This document shows, piece by piece, positions 590 through 64,000 of a stretch of DNA of 64,000 nt. Both the position numbers and the translations under genes were made by a program. This DNA comes from Paraspadella gotoi. Taxonomy: Eukaryota; Animalia; Chaetognatha. The notes below the pieces were generated by a model that made no database searches, was not told where the DNA came from, and saw only the letters and a list, made by a program, of their open reading frames with translations. Each line of letters starts with the position of its first letter. Within the stretch, counting starts at the first letter, position 1. The stretch covers positions 2,431,476 through 2,495,475 of the forward strand of contig JBJCIZ010000239.1 of NCBI GenBank assembly GCA_051294375.1. The letters are read 5' to 3'.

Positions 590-1954
590 ATGACGCTTTC
601 ATGTGAACAGTCGTCGGAAGAAAGCGGTCTTTTGAGCGTTATCTCACTCTTACGCCAAGTTCGAAAGGAACTGAATTGTATTTTAACAAAGGCTTTGGAT
701 AACGAAGTCTTCGCGGAACATTTGTCAGCGGTTGAATCTTCGGTCTCTGTGCTTTTGGAAACTGTAACCACTTTGCTGCACACACAAGTAATATTTATTA
801 TATAAATATCTCTCAATTTCAATTTAATAAAGTACCTAATTCGGTAATATTTTCGTTTTTTATTCCAGATAAAGAAGGAAACTGATGAATCGTCGTTTGA
901 TTCTCAAATCGACATTACACTTTCAACCTGTCCTTGCCCGGAATCGCTCGATGCGACTTTGGTCGACGATTCCCAATATTCGGATACCGCGCGTCCGAAG
1001 TCCCAACGGAAAAAAGATGGTCTGATCCGTGATGTCGTGTCTGTCGGGCGCCAATCTAATCCGGATTCTGCATCCGGGGAAGGAAAAAAAATAATTCCTT
1101 GTTTGGAGCCAACGAAGAAATCCACGACTAAACTGAGTTCTCTAAATCCACCGAAAGAACGTGGGGAAAATTTGGTGCCCGTACATGACAAGTTTCACTG
1201 TCCGCTGTGCGGAAAATCTTTGAAAAACAAAGGCTGCTTTGAATCACACCTCAAGAGGATCCACGGAGAAAAGAAGTTCCAATGCTCCGTTTGCGGACAA
1301 AAGTACGGACTTCAGTCCCAACTCAACACTCACGTGGCCAGAGACCACGAAGGTCGCATTTATCCTTGTGACTCCTGCGGGAAAACCTACAAAACCAAAA
1401 GCGCCATGATCTCTCACTTCTCTTCCTTTCACGAAAGAATTAAACATCTCTGCAGCGCGTGCGGCAAAGAGTTTTCCCGAGAGGAGTCTCTTTTATCTCA
1501 TAAACTATACGTGCACGAAAATCGCGGGAGCGTGTGCAAGATTTGCGATCGCAAGTTCAAGAGACCCGAGTCTATGCACAAACACGTCAGCCGGGTGCAC
1601 AAAGGGAAGACTTTTCCCTGTTCCGTTTGCGGAAAGGAGTTGGCCACGCCGAAATCGCTGAAGGATCACGAGCAGAACTTTCACGCCGAGGAAAAGAACG
1701 TTTTCGCTTGCAAACTGTGCGGGAAAGTGAAGCACACGCAACGGGGTTTAAAACTGCACGTCGCTTCGGTTCACGAGGGGAAAAAGTTTTTGTGTCCTTC
1801 GTGTCCGATGGAGTTTAGTTGGCACAGTCTAAGGCGGAACCACATAAGGATTGTTCATGAAGGCGTCAAATTTCATTGTCAGCTATGCGGAAAAAACTTT
1901 TCTCAAGGCTCCGCTTTAAAAACGCATACCGATTCAGTGCATGGAAAAAACTAG
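590..1954 (+). CDS. C2H2 zinc-finger protein (about 9 tandem fingers), 2 exons
   Basis: Exon 590-787, GT-AG intron 788-868, exon 869-1954 in frame. Repeated CxxC-x12-H-x4-H motifs (e.g. CPLCGKSLKNKGCFESHLKRIH). Confidence 0.9.
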
Positions 1955-2211
1955 TTTTATATAGATATGAACTTTTACGACTGTTAAATTTATGACCAAA
2001 ATGTTAATTACTTAACTAGTCTTATTGGACTGGTCGTCACTTAGTGACTACGTAGTACGTGACAAATTGTTTCTATTGTTTTATTCCGTATAAGTATTTT
2101 TAAAAAGTTAGAATTTTTGTATCCTACATTAATTTATAAAATATGATATTTATTTTTGTTATCTTTAATCCAGTTGCAAAATCCTTCCTTCATTCTAAAC
2201 ATCCTTTCATC

Positions 2212-2939
2212 ATGGGTGTTGAGGTAAGGATATCATTTTATGTTTAGCTTTTAAAAGTCGTTTTTGGGTGTTTGAGGTGAGAGAGGACATTGTTTGCTCA
2301 AACTTGTTTTCTTATTGCCTATATCAGGTTGAAACGACCGCAGCCGGAGATGGCGTTACTTTTCCCAAGCAGGGCCAAACTGTGTCGGTTCACTACACCG
2401 GAACCTTGAAGGACGGGACCAAGTTCGATTCTTCGAGGGACCGTGGCAAACCCTTTGACTTTAAGATTGGAACCGGCCAAGTGATTAAAGGTGAGGTCAT
2501 GGCTGCTTAATCACGCTCTACAAGTAGTTTTCTTTAAGAATCAATTGATTTTTAGTTACGGTCGATTTCTTTGGCCCTTGGTTTATCTTACTATTATGTT
2601 TAAATACTTGCTTATTTTGATTAATGTTCTTTATATTTGTGTTATCACTTGATCATTTCGAGATACTATAAATTTGGAATGTGGCGCAACACCTTATAAC
2701 TTCTTTTTTTTTTCGATGGAAGTTATTATTAAATTTTTTTGTTGGTACTTGGAGGCTTAATTGACTCTATAACAATCATTGGATCAGGTTGGGATCAAGG
2801 CGTGGCTCAAATGTCCGTCGGTCAGAGGGCCAAGTTGACCTGCTCTCCGGATTTCGCCTACGGTGAACGCGGGTATCCGGGAGTGATTCCGCCCAGCGCC
2901 ACTCTCATCTTCGACGTCGAGCTGCTCAATATCAAATAA
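2212..2939 (+). CDS. FKBP1A: FK506-binding protein 12 (peptidyl-prolyl isomerase), 3 exons
   Basis: Exons 2212-2223 (MGVE), 2328-2490 ([38 protein letters not shown]) and 2788-2939 ([32 protein letters not shown]). Canonical FKBP12. Confidence 0.97.
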
Positions 2940-4017: not shown

Positions 4018-7000
4018 ATGACATTAACATCTGCAAACTCCTCACCGGTAGATGCAACGTCATCGACTAGTCCCCAGGGCGAGAGGGCGTTTAACGCAGG
4101 TAGTATATTATCGCGGATCGGGTTATCCGAACTTTGAGATCGCTGGTACCAATTTAGCGTTAATTGTTACTCAATTTTCCAGGTGGAAATGGGAACGCGT
4201 TCGTTTTCGACGATCGCGGCGGCGGCGGTGACGTCGGCGGTGCAGCTGCTGCCGCCGCTGGATTATCGCCCAACGGCGGCGAATCTCGATCTTGTTCGCC
4301 GCCCAATTCTCTCTCCATCTCCACTCGCGGCAACTCATATTTCGCCGGAATCTCTTGCTCTTCCTCATCTTCATCCTCCACTGGTGGGTTGACTATTTAA
4401 GTTTGGTTGGGAGATATATTTTTTTACGAGAGCACAATTAGTGCGATTGGGCAACGAGCTTTTTAGATCTTTTTAGATCACATTGGTGTTTGTTGGTGCT
4501 CTTATGTATTTGGATTAATATTTACTAGGCTTTGTCACTAATATCTTCTTTCTCAGGTCACAACGTGCCGCCGATGGGAGAAGGGCTCCTCTCGAGCTCT
4601 CACGATCCAGCGCCCCAAACGGCTCCCTCGCCCTCCCTCGCCGTCGCCGCCTCGGGCAATAAATACGAGAGCCTCCTCGACCAAGTCCGCACTCGACAGA
4701 CTCTGCACATCAAAGTGGCCGAGGCGAAGAACCTTCCTATCCAGACTCGTTCCCACTCCGTGTGGGGCAAGACCACGCACGAGAGCGAGGCCCGCGACAC
4801 CTTCTGCGTCGTCTCTCTCGATCACGAAGAGATCTTTCGGACGAACACGGTGGAAAAGACCAACAACCCATTCTACTCCGAGGAGTTCAAGTGCCAGGTC
4901 CCGCGGTCCTTTCGCTATCTCAACTACTACGTGTACGATCGCGGACTGAAGCAGAGCAAACCATTGGGCAAAGTCTCCCTCAAACGGGAAGAACTCACGC
5001 AGTTTCAAAACCGCGACACTTGGTTCCCGCTTCATCCCGTCGACGCGGATTCCGAGGTACAGGGTAAGGTGCACGTGGAGATTCGCACGGACGAATTGAC
5101 TGGACGGAGTTCGTCGAGTCACTATCTCTCGGCCGTCGAGGTCGGCGGCGGCGGCGGTCACGCGTACGGCAGTCCGACTCGCGGCAGCGTCGGCAGCAGC
5201 AGTAGCGGAAGCAGCGTCGCCGGTGAACGAACGTCCAGCGTGCTCGGCGGCCAGTCCACTTCGTCTCTCGGCGGCGGCGGGCGGGAAAACTCGGGCGGCG
5301 GTTACGGTAACAACAAGCTCGTCGTCCGGGTATTGGAATGCTCCGACCTCAATATCATTCACGGATGCTGCGACCCTTACATGGAAATATCCCTTTGGTG
5401 CTGCTGCCCAGGGGTCGCCAATGCCCTCAAGATCGACATGAAAAAGTCGAAGGTGAAGAGGAAAACTCAGAATCCGCGCTACAACGAGTCCTTCGTCTTC
5501 GACTATCTCGCCAAAATTCAGTCCAAAGACAACAATCATTTCCGGGAATTCTCGGGGATTTTGGAGGATGATTTGGACAAGCTCGAGTTGCGCCTCACCG
5601 TCTGGCACTACCACATCAGCGGGGATTCTTTTCTCGGCGAGGTCAAGATCGCATTGGAGTCGCTCAAAGGTGGAAGTCGTCGGGGATGTCATTGTTGTTT
5701 TTCGTTTTTTGTTTTTGTTTTTTTTTTTGTTTTGAGGTTTGCAGCTGATGTGACTGATAAGAAGTTACCACTTAGTATCGGCGAACCAAAGTACCTTCAT
5801 TAATCAATGGACAGACAGTAAATTTATAGTCAGGCACATTGTCATAAATGAGATGAGGAAACAACAATTATCAGGAACCACATCGTTTTGCCAATTGATT
5901 CCCAATCGTTTGACGATCGTCTTCGTTTTTTTTTTTTTTTTCAGGTCAACCTTCCGTCTACAATGCTTGGTACTTTCTGCAACCCCGGCGTCGCGCTTTG
6001 CCGTCGTCGTCGACCTCGACGTCGCTTGCTTCCGCCTCCGGTTCGAGTCTCGCGCCTCCATCATCGATGTCTCTCACTTCTTCCCCTTCCTCCCCAGCGC
6101 CTTCGTCCTTCTCTCACTCCTCATTCCTCAATCGTAACGCCGTCACCTCAGTGAGTTTTTTTTTCGGAATTCGGAAACTTTCCTTGCTGTAATTGCTGTG
6201 AAAATATTAAATGATTGGGTGTTGATTCGAAAAAGTCGTGCTTTCTGTTGCGTGTGTTGGAGGGGAATTCTTCCGAGCGGAAACCGGGAGATGCCTTATT
6301 TTTTTTTATTTCTTCCATTTAGTCACCAACTTTCACGTCGAATGCTCTCTTCGCTCCGTCAAACTTGGGGTCCTTGCGACTCCGAATCACATACATGGAG
6401 GATCATATTTTTCCGCGTGACTACTACGAGGCCTTGGGAAAGCTGCTTTATCATTCTCATCTGGTAAAATAGTAATTTTAGGACGATTTTTTTTCTCCGT
6501 ATATTTTTCTAACTTATTATCTACTTCAGGTCAAACCGATACCATGCAGTGCGGCTTTTTTGCTCGGCGAGTTGGTGGACGCCAACAATCGTTCCGAGGC
6601 CGCGCAATCCATCGTCCGACTTTTCATGAACAAAAGAAAGATTGTTCATTTGCTAAGGTGCTTGGGAGACATTTAATTGCTAATTGTTCAAGCATGTTTG
6701 TTGAAGTGATGTTTGTTGTAAAGACAAGCAGACATAGAATACGTGTTTTTTCTTAAATCTAATCAAAGGCTGGAATGTGCTTCTTTAATTTTTGTATTTA
6801 CTTTGCTGTTACACCAGGGCGCTGGCTGAAGACGAGATCTCCAACACTTGTGATCCAACGGTGCTTTTTCGAGGAAACACAGTGGCTACGAAATGTATCG
6901 ACGAATTCATGAAAATTGCTGGGAGTCATTATTTACATTATACTTTAAAGTAAGTTTGGATATGCAAATCGTTTGCTTTTTAAATTGAAATGATTTCGAG

Positions 7001-10000
7001 TCGCTATTTTTTTTCTCTTCCAGATCAATTATCGATGAGATATTCTCGGATCATCGATCGTGCGAGATCGATGCGACGCTTCTGAGGCGCGAAGACAACA
7101 TCACCGAGAATTATGAAAATTTGAAGAGGTTTACAACCCGTTTATTTTCTTCAAAGTATCAAGATATATCGAATTAACTTTTTTCAATATCTATTTTTAG
7201 CTACGTTGTCCGAATCGTATTATCCATCACCGATTCGGCTCTCGTTTGCCCCACGCTCTTCTGCGAAGTCTTTTACAGCCTTAAGGAAGCCGCCGTGAAA
7301 TATTTCCCCGAGCAGCAGGAAGCGGTGAGTAAAGATGATCGACCTTACCAAGCGTCTGGCGTGTTTCTCAATCCAACGTTTTATTACAGGTCAAATACGT
7401 TGTGGTGAGTGGCTTCATCTTTCTTCGGTTTTTCGCCCCGGCGATTTTGGGTCCTCGCCTTTTTCAACTGAGACAGGACACCCCGGACGCTCTCACTCAA
7501 AGAACCCTCACGCTTATTTCTAAAGCTATACAGGTGACGGAAAAGATTGACTCAATTTTGGATGACGTTAAAAGTTTTATATTACTATGAAGATGCTTAT
7601 TGTCAGTACATAATTCACAAAAAAATTACGAATGGCGAATAGTTTCAATCGAGTTCGTCCATGCTTTGAGAGAGAAACGTAGTCCAAGTCATCCTAGAAA
7701 AAAAAATGTTTAAAACCACATTGGTAAACCCTTGACCTTGACCTAAAAAATTTCCCATGTAAAACCTAAAATCTATATATTACAGGGTTTGGGAAACTTG
7801 GTGTGTTCCCCGAACAGCGTTCGCTCGGTTCGTAACCGCGACAAGTCCTACAAAGAAACCTACATGCAGCCATTGTACACCGATCTGATTGAAACCGTGT
7901 GTCTATTGGACGCCGTCCGCCGTTTTCTTGACATCATTTCTTGCGCGAAAAGGGCGCACGCTCAAATCATTGAGGAGCCTATAATCCTGAAGGAAGGATT
8001 CATGACTAAGAGAGCCCAGGTGATTGTTTTTCTAGAAAAAAAAAAGCCAGTCTATAAAACGTTGTAGAACGCAACAAAAAGTACCTGTACTCCCATGTGA
8101 AATTTTTTATCTAATTCATTATCACGGTACATGCGATGACTCTCAAAGAAGTTTTAGTATCCTTCGAATCGGAGATTGGTGATATTGAAGCCGTGATCTG
8201 ATATTCGATTTAACAATTTTATGATCAGCATTTAATGGCTGCCTGTATTCCCAGGGTCGTCGCCGATGGGGTCGAAAGAACTTCAAGCAGCGATTCTTCT
8301 GCCTCACGACCAACGGGTTTTATTACTCGAAAGAGAAGGGAAGCCCCGCTCTCTGTCAAATGCCTCTCGAGGACATCCTCGCCGTGGAAACGCTTGAAGA
8401 GGAAAGCTTCAAAATGAAGAACATGTTTCAGGTGCTCGAATTTGCTAGGATAGAATGACTGGATTATGTCCACAGGGTAATTTTAGGAACACGTTAGCCT
8501 GACATGCAGATTTAAATAATGATTGTCCATTTTGAGTTGATGAATGCGAAGGCGTCTTGTTGGCTTTTTTGGAATGTTAATGCTTATTATAAGGGAGTGG
8601 TCATTTGATACCATTTGAATACCATTTCATTGATGGGAAGCCAGGTGCTTTGGGCCTGGGAGGAAATAAACTTTTGCATGGTGATTAGGGCTCAATAATA
8701 CTTGTATACTGGTATATACTTGTAAAGTCGAAATATAAAAACCTAAAAAAACTCCAGTAAAATTTTACTCTCGCCGACTGGCTTCTTTTAAAAAACTATT
8801 TAAAACTAAATATTTTTTTTAAAAATGTAAAAAAATATATTACCCCTTATCCCTAATCACCCTAAACCCCCCCTAAACCCCAGTCGGCGAAAGTAAAATT
8901 ATTCCCATTAACCAACCATAGGCGGCAAGATAACTTTTTATTGAATGAATATAAAATTTATATCATATATTATGCAAATTTCATTTGAATACATTATTGA
9001 ATTTTCCCCTTTTCAAAGGTCATTCAACCTGCCCGCACTCTTTACATCCAAGCGCCCAACTGCGTGGAAGAGACCGAGTGGGTTGACGTCCTGACTAAGA
9101 TTTCCCTCAACAATCGAGGACGCTTGAAACAGTACCACCCGGCGGCTTATCTCAACGGCCAGTATCAGTGCTGCAAAGCGGCGGCGCAGAACGCCCCGGG
9201 ATGCGAGCCGGTCTCGGCCCTGGACGAGTCCCTCCTTCCCATCCGGTTGGAGATCGACGAGGAGGCGGAGATGCAGCGAATTCACTCCCTCTTCCTCTCC
9301 AAAATGTCCGAGATGGAGCGACTCAAGTTAGAGTGCGAAGCTCACATCCTCCACGAGAATCCCTCGGGCTCCTCGTTGCCTTCTTCTTTGCCGGCCTCCA
9401 ACTCCGGCGCTCTCCTCTCCCACGCAGGGAGGTCCACTCTGCGAGAATCCACGAGCGGCGTGGGCGTTCCCCGTCAATCTCCCTCGCCTTCGCCGTCTCC
9501 GTCGTCCTCGAAGGGAACGGCGGTGCCGTCGACGGCGACGTCGGCCACCATCTTCTTTCCTCCATCATTTTCGTCTTCGTCGTATCCTCCTCCGTCGGGA
9601 ACGGCGTCGTCCGCCTCGTCGACCCCCAACTCTCTCCACGGTCCCCCAACTCCGCCCTCGAATTCCTTAGTGCCTGCCAACCTATCTTCCTCCAGCGACG
9701 TAACACATTTCCCCGCGCCGCCGCCGCCGCGGACACCGAAGACTCCCAAAACTCTCTCGGCCCACTCGAGCAGCAGCAGCAGCGGATGCCTTAGCAGCAG
9801 CAACGTGAAAAGCCACCACGGTTTATCCAGCCCGCCACCACCGCCGCCGCCCGTTCCTCATCATTCTTCTCGCGTGCCTCCTCCTCCACTCACTCCACCT
9901 TGCTTGGGTGCCGTGGGTGGCCACCCCGCTCCAAGGACGCCGCCCGGTCCGACTATTTCCCCTCCCATGTCCGCTCCATCCACTTCCGCTTCGCCTTCTT

Positions 10001-10497
10001 TTCCCCAACGTCACCATAAACCCCCACCCCCACCCCCACCTCTTCAAGTGAATTTTACGCCGATCACCGATCCCAATATGTGCCTACGAACCGTGGAAGA
10101 CATTCTTGGCTGCGTGAAGAAGCTGCACCAAGATCATACACAATATTTGCGGGCCCTTTACAAAGCAACGCAATATGGATCGAAGCAGGTAAGGATTGAA
10201 ACCATGAACGAAAAGGAATAAACAAAATTGAACCTGAAACGAAGCAAATCAAACAAAGGAAACGACTTGACAATAAAATTAACGAAGCAAAAACATATGT
10301 ATGTATTACATAATCTATATATAATATATATATATAATTTTTAGGCACCAATTGGTGACGATAACTACCTTAAAATGGCGGCGGCGCTTAAGAACACTTC
10401 TTTGACGGGTCCCAGCGGAGTATCGGGTCTGGAACTGGCAGCATCGGGCGATTTGCAATCCACACCTAGCTCTGTTTCTTCGTTTGTCGATAACTGA
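4018..10497 (+). CDS. RASA3: GAP1-family Ras GTPase-activating protein (C2-C2-RasGAP-PH-BTK), about 14 exons
   Basis: C2A ([32 protein letters not shown]), [11 protein letters not shown] linker, RasGAP motifs ([17 protein letters not shown]; [16 protein letters not shown]), PH ([24 protein letters not shown]), BTK motif ([14 protein letters not shown]), C-terminal YGSKQAPIGDD. Start at 4018 inferred from in-phase splicing 4099/4183 and 4383/4557. Confidence 0.92.
8761..8900. mobile_element. MITE family A, copy 1 (140 bp, in a RASA3 intron)
   Basis: 21-bp terminal inverted repeats AATTTTACTCTCGCCGACTGG / CCAGTCGGCGAAAGTAAAATT (1 mismatch). A-rich interior followed by CCCTAA-like repeats. Confidence 0.8.
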
Positions 10498-11756
10498 TCC
10501 GATGTTTTGATAAAAAAAAAAAAAAATTTCCTACGCGGAACAAATTGTTTTTTTCCCCCTTCATCCTTCGAACCTAGACTTTTCCATCACACCCTAGCAT
10601 CATCCCACCTCCTCTTTCTCTCCGCCCTTTTTTTATGGAGCGTTATCCGTTTTTATTCATCTTAATTTCTTGACCACTTATCTTCCCAAAGCTATTTTGA
10701 CAAGTATTCTCGACAGGTAAGCTCCGTGTATAAGTAAGATCTGCTTATCGCAGATTCCGACTCTCTATAATCCACTTTGTCGTTCCGTCGGTAAATCAAT
10801 TTAGATCATCTCCGAACATCGAATTATGAAGAACAATGGGAAAAAAAATTATGTCCGTATGTCTGTCTATCCCCCGTTAGCATTAAGCGTGAATAGATGG
10901 ATTGATTGAGATTAAATTTTGTGTGTGGGGAGGAATTCTGTTGAAGTCGCCGCCCGGCCCCCCCCCCCACATAAGCCCTCGTAATCTCGAGGTGCCAATA
11001 TCGCGAAAAGTTATCAGAAAATAACGATAAAAAACAAAAGAAATGAAGTTAAATGTAATGAAAACGGAGAGAAAACAAAAGACAAAAGTTCGAGCTGAAT
11101 GTAAAGTTACGATGGAATGGAGTAGAAATAAATTTGAATGGAAAAAAAAAGTCTCTCTTGTCAGATCTGCGAACGATAATTTAGCGGTATAAAATGATTG
11201 ACTGGCAGATTGATTAGTTGATTGAATGATGGTTTTGTAAAAAAAAGACAAAAAGAAAGGAGAGAAACTAAAAAATAAAGAAAAATTCAAAGGAAATAAA
11301 GAAAATTAAAACATAAGCAAGTGAAAACAATAAAATGTTTGAACCATACAATAATTCTTTTCAAGAAAATTGATAATAAATAAAAGGATACTATTTCAAT
11401 ACAGATTCCAGAAGACAACCGATGTGTTAAAACAAATATATAATATTAAAAAAGAAAAAAGTGTTGAAAATTAATGTTAAAAACAAAACCATATCAAAAG
11501 TTGAATGTGAGTTGTAATTAATAAATTAGAAAATTTATTGTGACTTATCATCTGATTAACTGCTTGCCGTCAAATTAACGTAGGCAGATCCGACATTGTT
11601 TGCTCTATCTTGTTAAATACAAAATTGAACATTGAATTGGACATTTCAAAATCAAACATCTTTTGTAATATGAATAATTTAAAAAAAAAAGATTTAAAAT
11701 TGTAAGACTACTTCTTAGACATCGTGATTTTCCCTTCTTTTCGTTGTGGTTTGATA

Positions 11757-11836
11757 TTAGAAGACGTTTGAATTATTTTTTACAACAAATATAATACAAT
11801 AAAATCGTTGTAAAAAATAATTCGAACGTCTTCTAA
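11757..11836 (+). repeat. 30-bp inverted repeat (hairpin) with AATAAA in the loop
   Basis: TTAGAAGACGTTTGAATTATTTTTTACAAC (11757-11786) pairs with 11807-11836. The single mismatch is a G.U on the + strand. AATAAA at 11798-11803. Confidence 0.9.
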
Positions 11837-12951
11837 GAATACTTCTATTATATATTTCGGTTTTAAGTAAAATACGTCGGCTACCGAACAAAATGAGGAA
11901 AATTGAGAAAAAAATTTCAGGTGTTGCATTGTGCAGGAAAATATAATTCACAAAATAACACCTGAATAAGGTACACTATATAGAAATATTCGGAAAGTGT
12001 TAAGTACGTACTTAGTATATGTTTTAAATTTGTTGGTTTCTTTTTAATTTTTTTAACTAAAGCCAACGGACTTTAGTCAAATATAGTTAATTTAATAAAA
12101 TTATGGATTCGATTATAAAATTAATACGGTGAAATCAATTAAGATTTTAATGGGAATAATTTGAAGTTAAAATTGACGGGAAATACTTTTCAGAGCCAAT
12201 TTTAAACTGGTGGTTAATTTTTGTCAATTTTACACACCTGTGCTTTCGACAAATTTTTCTTTTCTTTTCGAGTTTCTAATCACATTTGATGACAATCTGT
12301 TGTTTTAGAATTTAATTTTTCTTTTTTTTTTGGTTGAGAAATTTTCCACGCTAGTCAATTTTTTTCTACAATTTTACAGTTTTCTTTCCAGAAGAATATT
12401 TGGATTATGATCCGATTACTTCTTTTAGGTATACTTAATTTTTTATAGACATAGATGTAACAGCAAAGTTTTTATCGACCGTATTTATGTTTTCCAAAAA
12501 TCATTAAAATTTTAGATTTTCTTGACTTGGTTCAAAAACCATTTTCTGCGTTCCCCCATTCTGTTTTTGAAATGTTTTTTTTGTTTTTTTGTTTCTAATG
12601 TTTTGTTATTAATACCGAGTCTGTCTGCTTTTTTCATTTATCACAAAGCACACTTTCTTTCGCAGAAAATTTCTTATTCTCACAAATAAATCTTTTTTGT
12701 AATCTTGTTTTTCTAAATTTATATTAAACTCGTTATTATACGCCCTTCGTATGACATTATTTAATAATTTTGAAAAAAAAAATCACGCTGTGACTTGGTC
12801 ACTGCTTTGATGTTGACCTTACGGAATTGTTAGATGAATCTTAATTCTTATGTATAATACTGTTGATTTTTAATACTGCAATGTAAAATGAAAGTTTTTA
12901 ATGTTTGTTTCTTCGTTCACAGAATTATTTAATGAAATAAAAAAAAGAAAC

Positions 12952-15016: not shown

Positions 15017-15102
15017 TTGAAAAAAAAAACGTTGATTTTTTTTTTCATTGTTTCACCATCGTTTTTGTTTTGCCACGAAAGGGTTTCGCAATATAAATAA
15101 TA

Positions 15103-17962: not shown

Positions 17963-18325
17963 ATGGAAGAACCAACTATGACCGACGATATTCCTCTCAA
18001 GGCCGCTTTGCACTACGCCGTCGGGAAAACCTGCGAAAATTACGCCAGAGACACCGACGAAGTCGCTTTCGACAAAAAATTCGTGAGCGCTTTATCCGTG
18101 GCCGCCTCGCATCTGATTCGTTCTTACGCTCGCGACTTGGAGGCGTTTTCTCGTCACGCCAAACGACAAACGGCGAACGTGGACGACGCCAAACTTTTAA
18201 CTCGTCACAACGCCGACCTAGAATTATTTTTAGACGCCAAGGCTCGTCAGTTGACGTCCGCTAAAACTGTCAAGAGAAAAACTGTCGTTCAGGCCGGCGA
18301 CGCCGGAAAAAAGTTAAAACGTTGA
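17963..18325 (+). CDS. CENPS: Centromere protein S / MHF1 (histone fold), intronless
   Basis: LKAALHYAVGKTCE...ARDLEAFSRHAKRQTANVDDAKLLTR is the CENP-S histone-fold signature. Confidence 0.93.
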   Translation: MEEPTMTDDIPLKAALHYAVGKTCENYARDTDEVAFDKKFVSALSVAASHLIRSYARDLEAFSRHAKRQTANVDDAKLLTRHNADLELFLDAKARQLTSAKTVKRKTVVQAGDAGKKLKR

Positions 18326-21029: not shown

Positions 21030-22867
<1,838 letters not shown>

Positions 22868-50200: not shown

Positions 50201-51331
50201 TCGGACAAGGATGCGGATTGGCTTTACAGCGAGAAGACATTCATTGATAAACGGACGGAAAATGACGATAAAAACAAAAAGCCAAAGGAGATGAGGGAAA
50301 AAATTGAAAGGAGCGCACTCGAGGATCGATCGATTAAGGATCCATTGTCTTCCAACGATAAGACTCTCAAGGCGCCACCGAGATTAAAAGCGGCGAAAAA
50401 ATTGCGCGGCTCACTCGAGTCGACGAACAGCGCCGACTCGACCACGATACCAAAGCTGTTAAATATGACGTCGTCGTCGGAAACGACGCCGATGACGCGC
50501 GGAACGCCCTCCATCGATTCGTTGACACCGACGCCGGGGACGCCCGAATCCAGTTTAATTCCACAAAATGAACAAAAACCTCTTCTCAGAGGAGACAATC
50601 TCAAGAGCCCGCCCGAGCCGTCGCCGAATATCGCTCCCTCTTTATCGCCTCAAATCAGAGCCTCGGCCACGCCCACCGTCGCTTCGTCGGCGAACGTGAA
50701 GCGTCAGCCGTCGATACCCGTCGCTCAGGGACCTTTGTTTTCGTCCACGCAACGACCGATTCTCGTCAAGCCTTCGACAGAGGCTCAGGCGCGCGGGACG
50801 GAGGCCGAGAGCGGACAGAAGTCGGAAACTACAACTCCTTTCTCGATAAAACGTCCGGCGCCGAATCCGCCCAACGCGAAGGGCGGAAACTCGACCTCCG
50901 TGCCGAAAACTGCGGAAACGAGTCGCCCGAATTGGGACGTGAAAAAATCAAGAGGAAACGTCGTCAAAAATGCGACGAAGCGTGACTCGGACGAGACGAC
51001 GCCGCCACAAACCAACGTTGACGGCCGCGTCATAAAAGTGGTCAACATCGTCAAGAACGATGACCCATTGGATATCACCATAGAGGGCGGCTCGGGTTCC
51101 GCCTGGGACGGCAAGGTCGTCGTCTCACACGTTTGGGAAGGAGGCGCCATTCACAAAAACGGAGGAATGAAGACCGGCGATCAACTCTTGATGGTTGAGG
51201 GAGTGAGTTTAAACGGCGTCTCGCTCTCGCAGGCGCAAACGGCCATCAAGAGGGCGATGCGATCTCCCAAGGAGATCATTTCTTTCGTCATCGCCGTCGC
51301 CGAGGAAAATCGCAGCGAAATTAAACTGTGA
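47222..51331 (+). CDS. USH1C: Harmonin (N-domain, PDZ1, PDZ2, coiled coil, PST region, PDZ3), 5 exons
   Basis: MEKKIAKDFQSAV..LRAYHQ|SMDVAWLV..PSRRPLFDHVRKLIPPKQQ (harmonin N-domain), PDZ1 GFAIRGGFEHGVGFFVS, PDZ3 LDITIEGG..DGKVVVSHVWEGGA. Confidence 0.9.
48762..48920 (+). mobile_element. Tc1/mariner transposase N-terminal HTH remnant in a harmonin intron
   Basis: MPNRQPLSLVHKGVIVALRKEGKTQQFISNRFGIPRSTIAIFLRRY has the pattern of the Tc1 paired-like HTH. No DDE domain follows. Lies within intron 48276-49157. Confidence 0.7.
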
Positions 51332-51692: not shown

Positions 51693-54309
51693 ATGGCGCG
51701 AAACTTGTATCCCGTGAAATCTCCGAGAGTGGCGATTAAAGCTCCAGACTCGCCTCGAATGAAAGCATTAAACGGTGGAGGCGCCGCCTCGGGCACGCTT
51801 TACACCTATCCGGATAACTTTCGGTGGGTTTTTTTTGGGGAGTCCTTTTCGTTTTTCCCACTTTTTTTTTACCCAATTGTCTCCATCGCCCACTTTTATT
51901 TTCCCCGTAGCGCCTACAAGGGCCTCATCGCCGCAGAATACAGCGGCGCCAAAGTCCGGGTGGTTTCCGACGCGCCGGACTTCGTTCTCGGAGAGACGAA
52001 CAAGACGGTCGCGTTCCTGGCCAAGTTCCCCATGGGCAAAGTCCCCGCTTTCGAGTCGGCCGACGGAAAAAATCTCTTCGAGAGCAACGCAATCGCCTTT
52101 TATTTGGCCGACGAGCAGCTCAGAGGAAAATCCATCGAGGATCAGGTTCTTTTTTTTTTTTTTTTTAATTTGGATCTCGTTTTTTTATTGCGTCACGACG
52201 ACAGACTAAGCAACTATATTAGTCACTGTCTGGTCGGTTGGTCAGTCTTTTGTTAAAATACATATAATTTATTTGATATAATATTACGTTACCAGTTAAA
52301 AGACATAGAGATGTTTTATGGTCTATTCGTTTCATAGTATGCGTTGTTAGCTTTTAAGAATTTGTTAATACGTCGTTTGTTTTTCTCTTTGGGTTTTCAG
52401 GCTTTTGTTCTTCAGTGGATCTCGTTCGCGGATCACGAGTTGTTGCCGCCCGCCTGCGCCTGGGTTTTTCCCTACATGGGCATCATGGACTTCAACCGAA
52501 GCGCGGTCTCCAGGGCGAAGAGCGAAGTCGGCAGGGTCTTGAACGTCATGAACGAGTATCTCAAGGTAATATTTAATAAATATAAAATAGTATTAATAAT
52601 AATGTAGCAGATTGATTTGTAAATTGTCTGAAATGAGATTGAGTTTCTCAATTTCATTTGCATATTGCCGTATTCTGATTAAGCTTGTTCTATTGCCTTA
52701 AAGGTTTAATATTAATATTTTACATTAGTAAATGATCATGTTTGTTTGTGGTTCAATTAATAGCTAAATAATTAATGATTTAATTATCATAATTGCTAGT
52801 TTACAACTTTAATTATTCTTGTGATTCCAGCTGACTTTTCTATGTTTAGTAAGAAAAATATATTCTCAGAGAATTATCCCTTAGTCAGCTAGGATTACAA
52901 GGGTCGGTTTGAACCACTATGCCCTTGCTAGCTTAACACTTAGGTTTAGCATTCATTAAGATAATACTTGAATAATAATAATTTCCAGAATTGTTTTTCC
53001 TCCAGCTCCGAACGTTTCTCGTCGGGGAGCGGATAACTCTGGGCGATATTTGCTGCATGTGTAATCTCCTGCATCCCTTCAGATGGGTCTTCGACCCCAA
53101 ATTTCGGGCGCAGTTCATTCACGTCAATCGATGGTTCATGACGATGGTTAGTAGTTTTGTATTGACATTAAAATGATAATGATATTGTACAAATCTTTAA
53201 GAACCTTTTCAAAATAAAAAAAAATTAAATCGGGTAAAAATGCACAACTTTTCGCGCCATTGGGAATATTTCCTATTTCATTTTGTCTCAGATTAACCAA
53301 CCGCAAGTGATAAAGGTGATCGGCGAAGTCTCCTTGTGTCCATCCGAGCCACGATACGACGACAAGAAACTGGCCCAGGTCGCCCTCTCCGTCGGTCTTT
53401 CTCCCAAGAAACGAAAACCCAAATTCCGAAGTCAAAAGTCCGTTGACGATCCAACCTTGGCCAGGTTTAGCGGATCTCCGAAAAAACGGGTAAATTTAAA
53501 GTTTATCGCAACCGCAACCTCGATAAATGCGGGTCTCGTCGGAGGCTCAATGTCCTTTATCCGTATTAACATTTCACACTCGGTCCTTTTAAAAGGTTCA
53601 GCGCGCCATGACGATCCCGGACGATAGCGACGACGACGTGGATGCGCCTCTCAACGATTCTTTCATTTCGCAACGGTCAGTGGCCTTTGCCGCCGCGCGC
53701 GTCGCCGCTCATCGCTCCCCCAAATTTCCCGCTCGATCCTCGCGTTATTCGGCGGTGGCGGCTTCCGCTACGCCACCCAGCGCTCGGCGCCGCCCTCCGC
53801 CGCCTCCGCCGCCGAAAAAGCCCAAGTTTTCCCTGGACCTCCTCAAGTCGGCCTACTCATCGCCGAGCGCCTCTTCAGCCCTCATTCCTTTCTTCCTCGA
53901 AAACTTTGATTCGACGAATTTCTCCATCTGGCTCTCCGAATACAGATACCCCAAGGAATTGGGCGCCATGTTTCAGTCCGAAGGTTTGATCGCCGGCATG
54001 TTCCAGCGATTGGAGACGATGAAGCGGCACGCCTTCGCCGTCGTCGGCCTCTTCGGTCGCGCTCGCGGCGCACAGATTCAAGGCCTTTGGATTTGGAAAG
54101 GCAAGACGCTCATTTTCGAAAATTCGGAAAACTGGAGGGCGGACTGCGAAAATTACGAGTGGTTTCCGCTTGATCTCGACGAGGATCGAACTAAAGAATA
54201 CGTCAAAGAATTCTTCACTCACAAACAGGACGTGATGAGGTACAAGCCTTTTCGAGCCGGCGCGCCCATGGCCGCTATGACCTTGTATTCTGTTGCTGTG
54301 CTTATGTGA
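51693..54309 (+). CDS. EEF1G: Elongation factor 1B-gamma family protein (divergent), 6 exons
   Basis: [58 protein letters not shown], and EF1G C-domain [24 protein letters not shown]. An in-frame upstream ATG at 51651 is an alternative start. Confidence 0.9.
52881..52926 (-). repeat. Dispersed repeat family B, copy 2 (in an EEF1G intron)
   Basis: Reverse complement matches 20442-20486 with about 3 differences. Confidence 0.8.
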
Positions 54310-56157: not shown

Positions 56158-59100
56158 ATGGAAGTTTCGGCGCAAATGACGAAACCGGAGAAATGGCGAC
56201 GTCCCGCCGTCGGACTCAATCACTGGGGCGCGCCCAACATGACTCAACGCATCGAATCGATGGCGACAAACTTGGCCGGCGTTGCTATCATCGACGGCGC
56301 CCACGATCCCAACATCGTGATGCCGCCTCCGGCCGGGATGGCATTGGCGCCACGTGCGTCCGCCACGTCGCGCGAGGATGAAACGAGTTCTCATACCTCC
56401 ACGGATCGCGCCGGTCAAGAGAGAAGAGAGAAAGAGAGAGAGAGAGAGAGAGAATAATATTTTTTTTTTCTTTTCCATTTCAGACGTGGCCATTCTGTCT
56501 AAGCAAAGTGATTCGCTGACTTTGCATTCTTCTTCCTTGGATTGGTCCACGCCCATCGCTTTTCTTGAAAAACGACATACTCAAGTGAGACTCGTTGTCT
56601 ACCTAGAATATTTATTTTTCTCGCGGAACCTCTCTCATCTTACAAAATTTTTCGGTCAAACCTTAGGAAATTGAGGGGTCAAAAGCGATGATAGATTCTT
56701 TGCGCGTGCGCGACCGCATGGTCAAGATGAAAACGGTCAGCGTTGCACTCGTTCTCTGCCTCAACGTTGGCGTGGACCCGCCCGATGTGGCTAAACCCAA
56801 TCCTTGCGCGAGACTCGAGTGTTGGTACGATCCCCTCGCCAACACTTCCAAAGCTCTGGAGGAGATCGGGGCTAAACTCCAACGCCAGTACGAGACTTGG
56901 CAACCGAGAGCCAGATACAAACAGAGCCTCGATCCCACAGTGCTGGAAATCACTAAAGTATGTTTTTAATTGTGAGGCCTTTTTGGTTTAATTCACATTA
57001 CCCATGTTATGCCAACCGCTTGTAGCTTTGCTCTTCATTGCGGCGTAATGCAAAGGAGGAACGGGTTCTTTTCCACTACAACGGCCACGGTGTTCCCAAA
57101 CCTACCGTGAACGGAGAAATATGGGTTTTTAACAAAAATTACACGCAATATATCCCGCTGTCGGTTTATGACTTACAAAACTGGATGGGCAGCCCTTCCA
57201 TCTACGTTTACGATTGCAACAATGCGGGCATCATCCTCGAATCCTTCAAGGCGTTCGCCAATCAAAGAGAGCAGGTCTGCCTTGAGGTTCGTAGTCTCGT
57301 GGAAGACGATGGCGCAAGTAGTTCACCGTCCGTTGCACTTTAGTCGGCGGCGCTACTGTCAGATCTACTGTTGGGTTAGACGTTCCGTCCCGTATGTATA
57401 AATATCAGGGCGCGAACCCGAGTGCTTTGGGTTGGGAGGAGTGTCGGCTACATCCGGCGCCAACGGTGCCCCTGATTCTGGGATGCGTGGCTGGGTATAA
57501 GTAATTGTCGACTTAGACGTGTATTTAGCGAAAAAGTGATAAATTACTGTATTCAATGTATTCATTTTATTCATTGTTTGCGACAGGAAATGCAAAATTA
57601 CGCGGCTGCCAACGACGGGGCTCACCCTCCTGGATCGACGGCTTCACTGTCTCACAAAAATTGCATTCAACTGGGAGCATGCCAGGCCAATGAGATTTTG
57701 CCCATGAACCCGGAATTGCCGGCGGATCTGTTCACGTCGTGCTTGACGACGCCGATCCGCATCGCGCTTCGCTGGTTCGTGATGCAAAATGCGGGGAAAC
57801 TCCTACCCTCTATTAGCGTCGAACTTCTCGACAAAATACCTGGTGAGAATGGCTGTGAATTTTTTCAAGTACTCTTCATTGATAACCAGATAGTTTAAAA
57901 ATCTTTTTCCGCCCTTCGATCCTTTTCAGGACAAATGAGCGATCGTCGCACGATGCTGGGTGAACTAAATTGGGTCTTCACCGCTGTGACCGACACGATC
58001 GCTTGGAACACGCTTCCCCGCGATCTCTTTCACAAACTCTTCCGCCAAGACCTTCTGCTGGCATCCCTCTTTCGCCACTTCCTCCTCGCCGAACGCATCC
58101 TACGGTCTTACAATTGCACCCCAATTTCTTCGCCAAAGCTCCCGCCGACGCACCAGCACAGCATGTGGCAGGCGTGGGACCACACTTTGGATCTCTGCCT
58201 TTCTCAGTTGCCTGGAATTCTTAAAGAAGGAAATACGTACAAACAGTGTTCTTTTTTCGCGGAACAGTTGACGGCTTTTCAGGTGTGGGCCCCTCACTGT
58301 GGGGGTGAAATTTTTAGAACGATAGATGATGAAAATTAGTTACCTCTCATTACCCCTCGGGTCAGGTTTGGTTGGGCCACGCCAATGAAAGTCGTAACCC
58401 TCCAGAACAACTTCCCATCGTTTTGCAAGTTCTTCTCTCCCAAATACATCGGCTTCGAGCGCTCGACCTTCTCGGGCGATTCTTGGATCTCGGTCCTTGG
58501 GCCGTCGGTCTCGCCCTCTCAGTCGGCATATTCCCTTACATACTGAAGCTGTTGCAGAGCAACGCGAGGGATCTCAGATCTTTGTTGGTTTTTATTTGGG
58601 CCAAGATTCTCGCCGTGGATTTTAGTTACCAGGTTGGCATATAAAAAGTCTTAGAACACTTTGGTCTGCGTTCGGATAAAAACTGGTCATTCTTATTGAC
58701 CACTACGGGTCGTTGTATTCGTCGTCGTCGTCTTTATTCGAAATTGAGCTCCCAAACTCGTTAACTTTCTTTTTACGGTCCTCCCAACTTCCAGGCGGAT
58801 CTTGTAAAGGACAACGGGCATCGTTATTTTTTAGCCGTTCTCAGCGACCACTTCATGCCGGCTGATCGACGCACCATGGCCGCTTTCATCCTCGCCACCA
58901 TCGTCCGCGATTACGATCAGGGCAAAGAGGTCGCTCATCAGGAACTCATCGCCACCTGCATCTACCAGATGACGGACGAGCACGCTCATCTGCGCCAGTG
59001 GTTGGCCATTTGTCTGGGCCAAGTGTGGAACAAGTATCCGATGGCCAAGTGGGTCGGAGTCCGTAACAACGCCCACGAGCAGCTTTTCGAACTACTGGAG

Positions 59101-62021
59101 GATGACGTGCCGGAGGTTCGAACGGCAGCCGTTTTCGCTCTCGGCACTTTTGTCGGCAACGTGATCGAACGGACAGACCACGCCAATCACGTCGACCACT
59201 CCGTCGCCCACAAACTCGTATCCCTCGTTAGCGACGGGTCGCCGATGGTGCGACTCGAACTCACCGTTGCGCTGCAACACTTGGTCTTGCAGTTTGAACC
59301 GAGTTTTTGCCAGGTGGCGGCTCAATTTTTAGAAGAAGAAAGACTCCTACGGGAGAATACTTGGCACGGAGGATTGAGCGCTTCCACGAACAGCACCGCG
59401 GCCGAGACGCCCACCCCCTCTCGTGTCGCCAGCGGCGGCGCGCTGAGTCGCATGTGGGGTTCCATGAGTTCTTACTCCTCTACGGGTAACAATTTTGAAG
59501 CGGGCCCCGCTTCTCCACTCGGCGGGGCGGGCGGGGTCGAAGGTTCTTTCGACGCCTCTGTCGGGGAAGTTACTCCGACGTTTGGAAAAATTCCTCGAAA
59601 CAGTTCTTCCTCTTCGCTATCGACGATTTTCACCGGGTCCAACGTTTATCTCAATGTGTGGAAGGCCCTCATCAATCTCTCAACTGATCCTGACCCGAAA
59701 GTCAATGATTTCGCCGGCCGCGTCGTGAGTCACGTGAAAAACGCTCTCAGAGACGCCGACACCAATCGGCGCCGTCAATCGTCGATTCCCGCGGCGTCCA
59801 AAGTCGCCGACATCGCCAAGACCCCGTGCTTCTCCGCGCCCTCTTCGCCTTCGAACAAAGCCTCCCCCTCCGCGGGCGGGGAAATGGTGGTGGGCTCGTC
59901 CAAGGCCTCTTCCAACCTTCAACAACAGACCCTCACTCGTTCGCAATCTTCCTTGAATAACCCCTCTTCATCCCCTGCTACCAGTCACACTCTGCCCCGT
60001 AACTCTAGCTCCTCGACCATGTCGTACTCGACCAAGTTCACGGGTCGACGCGGCGTGTTCGAGGGAATGCCCGAAGAGTCGGTGCTCAGAGGCGGCGGGG
60101 GCGGAGGAGGAGGATTCGCCGGCGCCAAGAAAAACTTTGTTCCTCGAGACCCGTTTCTGCAGAGCGAGTTTTGCGCCTGGTCTTGCAAGTATTTCGCGCA
60201 ACCAGTCTTCAAGTTGGCTCAGGAGGAAGATCCGGAGGGAGCGATGAGGTTCGACAAGGAATGGAGATTCGGAAGGAACGCCAAAGTCAGAATGGCCGCG
60301 AAAGCCACGGTCATGCAAGGCGAGTCTATGGATTCACTAATTATCTTTGGTTTTTTTTGTTTTTTTTTTTCAATGCATTAGTAACTTCGTAATAATTATT
60401 TAAAAATCATTATCGTCTCGTTTTAAAGGCCATTATAAATTAGACGAAGAAGTTTTCATCAATCGCAACCTCTGCGTCCCGACCCTCCTCAAATTCCATC
60501 CTTTCGAACCTCAACTCGCCGTCGGTGATAAGGAATTCGTCTCCGTTTGGAATTGGGAGACGAATCAAAAAATCAATTCCTTTCCCAATCTCAATCCCAA
60601 GTACAGGTTGGACACTCATCTTGTTTAACAAGGGAGTTGGGAGTGTTTAGTGGCCAAATTAAATATATGAAATTGGTACAACCAATATAAAAATTATCCA
60701 TTCATTTAATAAATAAGCTATCTTGCCCCTGACTTTGGACATTTATGCGATGTATTAAGATGAAAGTTCGAATTAACGTTCGATATTTAAACTTTTTCGA
60801 TTCGATTTTGATTAGCCGGATGACGTCCATGGACTTTTTAAACTCGCACGACGTCACTCTGCTGTTGACCGGGAGTGACGATGGAACAGTTCGCATCTGG
60901 AGAGGATACGATTCTATTGAGGGATATTGCACAAACCTCGTTTCATCCTTCCAGGGTCTCTCGGACATGATCCCTGGTAGGACGGGTTATTCTTTGCTGA
61001 CAAATGTTATTCGTAATCTAATAGTTAAATAAATTTCTAATAAGACTAGTAATCCGGTCTTCTCCCCAACGTTGACATTTTGCCTATCTCCACCCTCAAT
61101 TTTATTGTCTCTTCAGGCACACGAAGCGCAGGTATGATATTAAACTGGAACCAAGACTCCTCTACTTTAATCGCTTCGGGTGACGTTCGTCACATTCGCC
61201 TCTGGGACGTAAAAAGCGAGAAAAGGCTTCACGACATTCCAACAGGTAGGTCCTCACGGAAATAAAAAAATAAATTGACATTTTATGCCATATATAACAT
61301 ACGGAATCAAAAATGACTACCTAGTAACTTCAGTTTCACTTGGCATTTTCACATTGTCTCGTTTTCTTTGTTTTTTTAAAAAAAACATATTATTTCTAAG
61401 GCGCGGACTCGTGCGTGACGTCGCTGGCCTGCGATCTTGGAACTCAGTCGCCTCTAATCATCGCGGGCTGCGGGGACGGCTCCGTCCGCGTCTTCGACAA
61501 AAGAAGTCCCCCGCAGGAGGCCAGGTGAGAGAATATTTTTGTTTCGTAGAGCCAGCTGCAGGATTTATAGATTACTGACTCTCCCCCCCCCCTTTTCCTC
61601 CCCCCTAATAAATCCTAAAAGGATAATGACTCTTCGCGAGCACGCGGGCTGGGTCGTCAACGTTCACTCTCAACGAGGAATCAACGGGAAGATCATCTCC
61701 GCCTCCGTCAACGGCGACGTTCGATTCTGGGATTCTCGAAATCCCGAATCCGTGATGCACATTCAGACGGACAGCAACATCCAGGCCTTCGAGGTCCACC
61801 CCATCGCCGCCATCTTCGCCTGCGGATCCATGCAGCAGATGATCAAGATTTACTCCATTTCCGGAGATCCCATTCACACCATGAAGTTTCACGAAGGGTG
61901 GATGGGACAACGTCTCGGACCCATTTCCTGTCTGGACTTTCATCCGTGGAAGGTCGCGCTCGCTTCGGGATCCACGGACTCTTTCATTTCGGTCTACAGC
62001 AGTAGTAGAACGAAGAGATGA
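56158..62021 (+). CDS. RPTOR: Regulatory-associated protein of mTOR (Raptor), about 13 exons
   Basis: [59 protein letters not shown] repeats, and WD40 tail ([12 protein letters not shown]; [11 protein letters not shown]). Exact start uncertain. Confidence 0.96.
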
Positions 62022-63021
62022 TGATCGGTTTATTAGAGGAATTTTAATTAGCTAATAAATGTTAAACGGTTGATTGAATACACGATGGTAGGCTGAAAGA
62101 TTTTGTTTTCTTTCCAATTTGGGACAATCTTTCGTGATCGAGATAGTGAAAATGGTATAAAGGCGCTGGGGGCTATTATTGAAGTTTGGTTTATTGTTTG
62201 TTGTCGAATAGTTTTGTTTTACTGAACGATTGCTTTTCGTCTTTCTCATGCTCATGTCGCTGTTTGAATGTTTGGGTTATTCAATATTTTAAATTAGAAT
62301 CAAATATGAAAATTACAAAATTACTTGTTTCATTCGTTTTTTTTTATTTAAAAACTTTTGATATATGGCAAGGGCTTAAAAAGGCTTTTAATTTGTATAC
62401 AATATTAATTGGTTATTCAATATATTTTATTTAAACGTCAAAATTCTTTATATAGACAGTTTTTCTGGAATTAGAGAGTATAATTTCTTGGAGGATTTTG
62501 AGTTTTTGAGGATTTGTATGGATTATATTAGTTATGTATATTATATATATATTATATAATATTATATTAGTGCTTAAAGTTCAACATTTTTTCATAGTCA
62601 TCTTTTCTTTGCACTCATTTCAAGCGCAATTAATAGAAAACTAGATTGGTTCTCCAGAGGCGTTCGAATTTTTGTGGCTTCGAGTTCGAATTCGAAATTC
62701 ATCCCCTACTTTCGTGTATTGAATTGTATTGCGTATTCTGTATCCGTCTTATTTCAATTCGGATACTCAATCAATTTTTAAGTTGCCTCGGATTGTCGTG
62801 ATCACTGCGTTTGCACTGTTTGTTACATCCGTATTTTATTTTAGAAATTATCGTTGGTACTATTTATGATTTTAAAAGATCATCGTTTTGGTCCATTTAC
62901 ATGTTAGGTTCCAGAAGAAATTTTCAAATTCTACTATAGTAGTTATTAACGATTGTTTTTTTTTTCAAACAGGATCATGAGTAAATCTTTAATCCCCGGG
63001 AACAGACGCTGCTCATAAAAA

Positions 63022-64000
63022 ATGGCCGAGTTCGATGTCTTCGTGGGAAACCACGCCATCATAAACTTGGAGATTTACGACCTTTGGCTCCGCGGTCTCA
63101 CACCCGAAGAAGCCGCCGATCGTTTTCTCTCCAACGAAGAATCTTTCCGAAGCGGTTCCGGAACTCGCGACGCCGGTTCTATTCAGGGTCCCCGCTCCAA
63201 GTCGTCCCAGGGCAGTTCCTTTCGCGGTTCCACCGCTCTCGGGTCTTCGATGGCCAGTTTCGTACTGGCCGACGTTTACGACCATTACCGAACTCTGGCC
63301 GTCCTCGAGCGCTTTCTCCAAAATCCCCCCAACCTCGTGGAACAGCTCAATTTTCAGCTGACGGCCCAAACCCAAGCGCTTCTCATTCGCAAATACTACG
63401 AGTACGACGAATCCGTCTTTCGCGAATTCGCCGGGAAAAAACTCTCCATGCGTTCGCGGAACAATTTGGACGACGCCAGCGACCGTCTCAACGTGAGAAC
63501 GAAGAGCTGTCGACGCCAGTTCGACAACGTTAAACGTATTCTCAAGCTGGTGGAAGACATGGACGGTTCCCTCGTGGATAACATCCGATCCAGCTTTCTT
63601 CTGCCCACCGATCTCGCCTCTCAGTACGCCTGCATGGTCTTCGTCATCAACAACCGGTTCGAACTGACGGGGAAGCGAAGACTCAACTACGTCACCTTCG
63701 CCGACATCGTCTTCTGCGCTCGGGAGATGATGACGCGGTGGACGGGCGCCGCCGACGACGGCGACGCCGATTTCGACCGCGAATTTCTCGTCGATCTTCG
63801 CGAATTGAAGACGATGGGGGATCGTGAGTCGCTCGAAGAGCACAAAGGCCTAGTCATGGCGGCGTTGCGGACGAAGACGGAGGAACGAGCCCTCGCCGAT
63901 TTGGAGGCCAACTTCAAGAACTACTCCCGGGCTTTGATCCACATCGCCTACGGACTCAATCACGGCAAAGAGGCCAGAGACCTTTTCGTTGATCTAGTCG
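63022..64000 (+). CDS. FIBP: Acidic FGF intracellular-binding protein (5' part, runs off the window)
   Basis: MAEFDVFVGNHAIINLEIYDLWLRG, REFAGKKLSMRSRNNLDD, KSCRRQFDNVKRI, NNRFELTGKRRL. Absent from the ORF track because there is no stop in the window. Confidence 0.93.
   Translation, partial: MAEFDVFVGNHAIINLEIYDLWLRGLTPEEAADRFLSNEESFRSGSGTRDAGSIQGPRSKSSQGSSFRGSTALGSSMASFVLADVYDHYRTLAVLERFLQNPPNLVEQLNFQLTAQTQALLIRKYYEYDESVFREFAGKKLSMRSRNNLDDASDRLNVRTKSCRRQFDNVKRILKLVEDMDGSLVDNIRSSFLLPTDLASQYACMVFVINNRFELTGKRRLNYVTFADIVFCAREMMTRWTGAADDGDADFDREFLVDLRELKTMGDRESLEEHKGLVMAALRTKTEERALADLEANFKNYSRALIHIAYGLNHGKEARDLFVDLV

Follow-up and report, generated by a model that had tools for sequence, protein, structure and literature searches.

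At least nineteen unrelated co-directional genes in 64 kb of Paraspadella gotoi DNA: a candidate chain of spliced-leader operons

The animal gene arrangements closest to the one described here are operons whose transcripts are resolved through trans-splicing of a spliced leader (SL). In Ciona intestinalis, such operons hold 2–6 genes (PMC2760879), or 7 according to SLOPPR (PMC7986045). The largest operons of C. elegans and Macrostomum contain 8 and 9 genes, respectively (PMC8629364), and the largest of the chaetognath Paraspadella contains 9, the operon content being housekeeping (PMC12460157). Here we describe a 64,000-nucleotide stretch of Paraspadella gotoi DNA (the window; contig JBJCIZ010000239.1, positions 2,431,476 to 2,495,475), in which at least 19 genes, all on the plus strand, form a run about twice as long as the longest single animal operon reported (6–9 genes in the compared reports).

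What SL trans-splicing requires is an acceptor that is unpaired and close to the 5′ end (PMC8629364). Compaction alone does not imply operons or leaders, since the compact annelid Dimorphilus has neither (PMC7854359). Gene orientation has been surveyed more widely: the mean length of a directon, or same-strand run, is ~2 genes in animals (525 metazoan genomes), ~4 in euglenids, ~6 in diplonemids and ~30 in trypanosomatids, and the transcription units of C. elegans are reported to be randomly oriented (bioRxiv 10.64898/2026.07.29.740908). No long directional cluster in any animal was found in the titles and abstract openings searched, a scope that mostly leaves out subscription papers and also the preprint's per-species Data S4, where animal outliers are possible.

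The window shares with the SL operons of Ciona and Oikopleura a tight packing of unrelated same-strand genes, unresolved multi-gene transcripts (putative in the window) and the lack of AATAAA before the junction (PMC2760879, PMC1488885, PMC7986045). Unlike those operons, the run has at least 19 genes, its host is a protostome and no leader sequence is seen at the contig ends displayed for it. Nematode, Macrostomum and chaetognath operons offer further likenesses, namely spacers near 100 nt, some repeat-widened up to ~1 kb, housekeeping content and unpaired acceptors (PMC8629364, PMC12460157), whereas they reach 8–9 genes at most. Trypanosomatid directional clusters are likewise long series of co-oriented unrelated genes, and a run of at least 19 lies between the diplonemid (~6) and trypanosomatid (~30) means (bioRxiv 10.64898/2026.07.29.740908). 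In contrast to trypanosomatids, the genes here are intron-rich with ordinary cis-splicing, an acceptor does not stand at every start and a single window is concerned; tens of co-oriented genes per run is the only kinetoplastid property found, other such properties being strand-switch regions, universal trans-splicing and base J. We propose that the window works like an SL-operon system, an assignment that is putative and unproven, with a presumed leader.

A single-strand run of unrelated genes

The run extends from 590 to 64000 and is open at both ends. In order, it comprises genes for a C2H2 zinc-finger protein (ZnF), an FKBP, a RASA-type RasGAP, MRPL22, PTCD3, CENP-S, a TFIIB-family protein, KAT8, CEBPZ, ANAPC1, a DnaJ-domain protein, MsrB, MED11, a WD40 protein (38472..39849) that we take to be SEC13, an orphan protein, USH1C, EF1-gamma (EF1G), RPTOR and FIBP. 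Eighteen of the 19 have Pfam matches (175 plus-strand open reading frames, ORFs, of at least 70 aa were scanned); the nineteenth is the 1727-aa orphan ORF, with no Pfam match. The content is largely housekeeping, gene bodies make up 79% of the window, and the window has a GC content of 43.7% and no N.

The first-pass annotation of this DNA had described all its genes as co-directional and mutually unrelated, with no credible gene on the minus strand, and each of these statements is borne out. None of 225 minus-strand ORFs has a Pfam match above the cut-off: the 142 of at least 70 aa yield a single sub-threshold match, antisense to FIBP, and the 83 of 38–69 aa outside coding sequence yield none. 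A codon-frame discriminator, which called the frame correctly for 113 of the 120 blocks held out, favours the minus strand in 5 of 144 high-scoring tiles, all of them over plus-strand exons. Searches of the window gave no tRNA and no Rfam match at gathering score. A tandem array of paralogues would require homology among the genes; instead, the Pfam families differ throughout, the WD40 repeats of the SEC13-like protein and RPTOR being the sole recurring domain. The feature is real and is not explained by duplication, and it would be very surprising if it held genome-wide. Spliced models were built by dynamic programming, which reproduced 12 of 14 RNA-seen introns; this agreement is no independent check, because the same introns seeded the splice model. 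RNA served to correct the MRPL22 model, the orphan model was amended by eye, and the RPTOR model is approximate.

The stop-to-start gaps are, in order, 257, 1078, 2454, 86, 51, 122, 1153, 182, 377, 1023, 114, 678, 271, 802, 716, 361, 1848 and 1000 nt. Nine of the 18 are below 400 nt and five below 200 nt (51, 86, 114, 122 and 182), so that unrelated adjacent same-strand genes with short spacers, as in SL operons, are present. The five shortest spacers leave scant room for a 3′ untranslated region (UTR) and a promoter, which favours operons.

Random orientation is strongly disfavoured. The chance of 4e-6 first quoted for 19 genes is arithmetically sound (3.8e-6) and fails in its assumption of independence: it overstates the improbability, because close genes are not independent. 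When genes are merged across gaps of at most 250, 400 or 1000 nt, 14, 10 or 6 units remain, with P of 1.2e-4, 2e-3 and 0.03, values that take no account of the window's selection on this very feature. In a Markov model of the 18 pairs, zero switches have P of 4e-6, 7e-4, 0.04, 0.15 and 0.54 at mean runs of 2, 3, 6, 10 and 30 genes.

Selection of the window bears on the explanation by chance or artefact, by which ordinary monocistronic genes of a compact genome happen to share a strand and the window is an extreme outlier or a product of assembly. The window was flagged for this very feature among ~250,000 windows, and a genome of 20,000 genes would hold ~1–5 runs of at least 19 genes at a mean run of 2.5–3. 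The expectation falls to 0.04 such runs per genome at a mean of 2; moreover, the window is free of N, RNA contigs back the gene order across 8250–12915 and 12969–20077, and spacers of 51 nt are atypical of independent genes. We judge this explanation the least probable of those considered here, and quite improbable. The tail of an operon-rich genome could possibly also yield a 19-gene run, this being a single window picked for the feature.

Dispersed small repeat elements sit in introns and gaps in opposite orientations (20442–20468 and 52900–52926; 20706–20784, 52594–52672 and 36564–36604; 8872–8916 and 13260–13304). They widen some spacers, and repeat-adjusted gaps would therefore be shorter than those given above.

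RNA contigs, unpaired acceptors and the operon reading

The RNA evidence consists of contigs from one sequencing run (X1), presumed to be RNA, and covers 8001–28000; the run contains 80% of the words sampled from 14401–24400. Of the 23 joints in this region, 15 are listed, and 14 of these are GT..AG introns on the plus strand, the remaining one being a repeat jump. The most informative contig, of 5180 nt, spans 12969–20077 on the plus strand. It consists of ten exon blocks of MRPL22, the first gene of the RNA-bridged block, PTCD3, CENP-S and the TFIIB-family gene, with introns out and the spacers of 86, 51 and 122 nt retained, and the length computed for this structure is likewise 5180 nt. It is an exact four-gene spliced contig, which would fit co-transcription, though a contig cannot prove single molecules. 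A second contig joins spliced RASA exons to 2.4 kb beyond the RASA stop and ends at 12915, 7 nt short of the MRPL22 acceptor at 12922. A third starts at 23014, the first base after the CEBPZ acceptor, and is preceded by nine unaligned letters, which fit a leader remnant.

Splice acceptors were scored with a weight matrix derived from 50 introns of the window. An acceptor of at least 5 bits is located within 60 nt of the ATG in 11 of the 19 genes, a number that comes to 4.7 under shuffling (P = 0.0008); acceptors this strong occur in 29% of 459 other plus-strand gap windows (P = 0.009) and 14% of 567 minus-strand windows. For PTCD3, CENP-S, the TFIIB-family gene, CEBPZ, MsrB and SEC13 (acceptor 38360), all upstream donors fall below the 5th percentile of intron donors, so the acceptors before these six genes have no usable donor and are unpaired. 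Unpaired 3′ splice acceptors ahead of downstream genes are a property of SL operons, and start-proximal unpaired acceptors are the signature of SL trans-splicing, which on this sequence evidence is likely here. No acceptor of at least 3.5 bits is found within 60 nt of five of the 19 starts (ANAPC1, DnaJ, orphan, USH1C and EF1G). ANAPC1, the orphan and EF1G have candidate acceptors 100–320 nt upstream, and some of the acceptor-less start codons are possibly miscalled. AATAAA is present behind 4 of the 18 stops, where 2.6 would be expected, and shows no enrichment; it is also absent in 16 of 18 Ciona operons examined (PMC1488885).

Given that 19 unrelated genes are co-directional and that a single spliced RNA assembly links four of them, a chain of operons is likely. 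In the full form that we favour, and to which we give about an even chance, the window holds several operons head to tail, each transcribed as one precursor and resolved by SL trans-splicing at unpaired acceptors. The precursor would be cis-spliced, and a presumed leader would then be added at the unpaired acceptor just 5′ of each start codon, yielding single-gene mRNAs. Upstream 3′ ends would form near the next acceptor without AATAAA, a pattern known from operons of Ciona and Oikopleura. Acceptor-less starts, such as those of DnaJ and USH1C, would have internal promoters. The blocks would probably be ZnF-FKBP(-RASA), (RASA-)MRPL22-PTCD3-CENP-S-TFIIB-like, KAT8-CEBPZ-ANAPC1, DnaJ-MsrB, MED11-SEC13 and USH1C-EF1G. 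Of the very long polycistronic transcription first suggested for the window, a polycistronic organization of sub-blocks is supported by the four-gene contig, the spacers of 51–182 nt and the unpaired acceptors; a single transcript over the whole 64 kb would be conjectural, since the RNA covers 8001–28000, contigs cannot prove single molecules and five starts lack an acceptor.

Several points weigh against this chain of operons. Ten blocks on one strand have P = 0.002, and ordinary operons by themselves would therefore account for the run only in the tail of the distribution. The cross-gene contig does not establish one transcript, and the spacers could be bridged by pre-mRNA or DNA. That contig passes the CENP-S and TFIIB-like acceptors (3.7 and 4.3 bits) unbroken, and three quarters of intron acceptors outscore both. 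In the long gaps, where strong donors are present, acceptors could serve 5′ UTR introns, and the splice model was trained on the window's own introns. No leader sequence is seen among the 6 of 191 contig loose ends displayed, and the nine letters before CEBPZ could stem from a cut at a masked repeat.

Some of the same observations could be explained without trans-splicing, by stable multi-ORF or read-through mRNAs translated through leaky scanning or re-initiation, or by overlapping UTRs with promoters in upstream exons. Translation of multi-ORF mRNAs in these ways has been described in green algae (PMC7896298). The four-gene contig suits such mRNAs well, being fully cis-spliced yet intact across all three spacers, as does the absence of a leader from the six loose ends. 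The excess of unpaired acceptors and the start of the CEBPZ contig at one of them argue the other way. Full-length relatives of KAT8 and FIBP on contigs of ~1.3–2.0 kb are weak evidence of single-gene mRNAs, and assemblers tend to clip short leader tips, which lessens the force of a missing leader. We consider an account free of trans-splicing improbable.

Kinetoplastid-like arrays and the meaning of the pattern

At the other extreme, the window might belong to one or two very long polycistronic units of the kinetoplastid kind, with every mRNA trans-spliced and long clusters the rule genome-wide. No strand switch occurs among the 18 pairs and the ends are open, as is readily expected at a mean run of 30 (P = 0.54), less so at 10 (0.15) and hardly at 3 (7e-4). 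Merging gaps of at most 1200 nt leaves three units. The longest gap, 2454 nt, is spanned by RNA up to the next acceptor, and in the next longest of the gaps left unbridged every bin is T-skewed (9 of 9 between EF1G and RPTOR; 5 of 5 between RPTOR and FIBP). Set against this are the five starts without an acceptor, an animal average of ~2 genes per run in the 525-genome survey (bioRxiv 10.64898/2026.07.29.740908) and the choice of the window for this very feature. Furthermore, the gaps from the TFIIB-family gene to KAT8 and from KAT8 to CEBPZ are unbridged among the contig pieces listed (8 of 777), and three of the gaps have no T-skew in their middle parts.

The skew requires some care. The earlier claim that non-coding DNA is mostly T-skewed agrees with most gaps and introns: 16 of the 18 gaps have more T than A on the plus strand, as do 43 of 50 introns (13 RPTOR introns were left out as unreliable) and 26 of 36 intron cores. 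It breaks down in the middles of three long gaps, RASA to MRPL22, TFIIB-like to KAT8 and SEC13 to orphan, where the skew is flat or negative. Since one of these three gaps is carried by RNA, the skew says little about transcription here. Taken together, we find a kinetoplastid-like organization unlikely.

The corresponding evolutionary proposal is that a trypanosome-style organization arose independently in an animal lineage, whose chromosome arms would consist of directional clusters with tens of unrelated genes each, with long precursors and trans-splicing and with introns kept; it is tentative and rather unlikely. If the lineage routinely has runs of at least 19 genes, it would be an animal counterpart of the kinetoplastid gene arrays. 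It would then allow one to test directly whether promoter loss turns operons into long polycistronic units, and would raise the matter of how a multicellular animal regulates harmonin or a RasGAP by cell type. The resemblance to trypanosome arrays, seen here in one window, would count only if the pattern holds genome-wide; in the operon reading, too, the blocks themselves may be co-oriented genome-wide. Even the conservative reading would bring to light operons and, probably, trans-splicing in a lineage of protostomes.

Individual genes and their relationships

The features below are all on the plus strand. The C2H2 zinc-finger gene (590..1954) has 2 exons and rests on a Pfam zf-C2H2 match and its gene model. 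The gene for an FKBP12-type prolyl isomerase follows 257 nt past the zinc-finger stop, with 3 exons (2212..2939; Pfam FKBP_C) and an upstream acceptor whose AG ends at 2173 (8.2 bits). The RASA2/3-type RasGAP gene (4018..10497; C2, RasGAP, PH and BTK domains) has 14 coding exons, based on Pfam, the RNA joint 8432–9018 and splice scores. Upstream, the segment 3421–4017 is GC-rich, with short ORFs and a probable 5′ UTR exon, placed at 3421–3774 by splice scores. A minus-strand ORF at 3465–3815 was considered as a gene and rejected: it has no Pfam match and a frame score of 1.0, and it overlies a plus-strand acceptor (13.9 bits) and donor (9.0 bits). Short upstream ORFs between acceptor and main ATG also occur in ZnF (547), RPTOR (56140) and FIBP (62977).

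The 2.4 kb 3′ of the RASA stop (10498..12915) belong to the same spliced contig as RASA and contain a near-perfect hairpin at 11757–11836 (folding z −12.7). A second hairpin, at 19954–20123 (z −16.3 for 19971–20106), lies where the four-gene contig ends (20077). Contig depth is high and variable at both, which suggests repeats resembling miniature inverted-repeat transposable elements rather than microRNAs. Their matches to Rfam microRNAs are far below gathering score; the two motifs do not occur in the text of the microRNA supplement of PMC6468455, which is uninformative either way.

In the RNA-bridged block, the gene for the mitochondrial-type ribosomal protein L22, MRPL22 (12952..15016), has 5 exons (Pfam Ribosomal_L22, RNA joints). 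A GC-rich island in its intron 2, at 13600–13785, is absent from the spliced contig and has a weak, unexplained plus-frame score of 6.0. PTCD3/mS39 (15103..17911), also of 5 exons, is identified by PPR Pfam matches and a PDB mS39 match (E 8e-12); its 86-nt spacer carries an acceptor at 15081, the best donor upstream reaching only 2.0 bits. CENP-S (17963..18325; Pfam CENP-S) is a single exon, and its 51-nt spacer has neither a donor nor AATAAA. After 122 nt comes the two-exon TFIIB-family gene (18448..19876; Pfam TFIIB and Zn ribbon, an RNA joint), with a weak PDB match to TFIIB (E 0.012), presumably BRF2-like.

KAT8/MOF (21030..22867) has 4 exons, supported by Pfam, homologues and three RNA joints. 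CEBPZ/Mak21 (23050..26421; Pfam CBF) is intronless, and in its 182-nt spacer the acceptor at 23013 (10.5 bits) is without a donor. ANAPC1 (26799..34276; Pfam, RNA joints) has 5 exons and lies beyond a 377-nt gap, with an upstream acceptor at 26540 (9.8 bits). For the DnaJ-domain gene (35300..35998; Pfam), acceptor scores stay at or below 4 bits over the 300 nt 5′ of the ATG; it is possibly a promoter-started head, or its start is miscalled. MsrB (36113..36982; Pfam SelR) follows a 114-nt spacer with a donor-less acceptor at 36100 (11.4 bits). MED11 occupies 37661..38200 (Pfam Med11), and the SEC13-like gene (Pfam WD40) begins after a 271-nt gap.

The low-complexity orphan (40652..46505) has its nearest ESM Atlas clusters among AKNA-like proteins (score 0.89, low recognition), a lead only. 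USH1C/harmonin (47222..51331; Pfam), with an N-terminal domain and three PDZ domains, likewise lacks any acceptor that exceeds 4 bits, here over the 320 nt 5′ of its ATG. One of its introns, 48464–49085, contains a Tc1/mariner-like remnant with 35-nt terminal inverted repeats (97%), which encloses a short plus-strand ORF with a sub-threshold match to the Sleeping Beauty helix-turn-helix. The EF1-gamma-like gene (51693..54309; Pfam GST_N and EF1G), beyond a 361-nt gap, encodes a protein extended by 30 aa at the N terminus, with a long linker rich in Ser, Arg and Pro, and may be a divergent paralogue, not the main elongation factor. RPTOR (56158..62021; Pfam Raptor_N, HEAT and WD40), of ~14 exons in an imperfect automatic model, has an acceptor at 56110 (7.2 bits). 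FIBP (63022..64000; Pfam FIBP), truncated by the window end, has one at 62972 (11.1 bits).

In a three-gene tree, which contains no nematode, flatworm or gastrotrich row, the window sits on a long branch within the protostomes (SH-aLRT 94.5) and groups weakly with pancrustaceans (85.8). Its GC content is close to the 43% of the gastrotrich Lepidodermella (PMC11660948, where the word operon does not occur), an unconfirmed lead. The closest species-assigned matches of KAT8 and CEBPZ lean lophotrochozoan: those of KAT8 are 75–76% identical (Lineus, Lottia, Lingula), and the top five of CEBPZ come from annelids, brachiopods and nemerteans. In metagenomes, CEBPZ matched three distant loci (36–48%). 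For FIBP, the closest species-assigned match is 47% and an environmental match reaches 63% over its full length. Environmental proteins match KAT8 at 90–92%, and in a quick tree the segment 21452–22297 forms a well-supported clade with them. From these sequences, the clade would mark a widespread unannotated animal lineage, usable for a survey of gene orientation.

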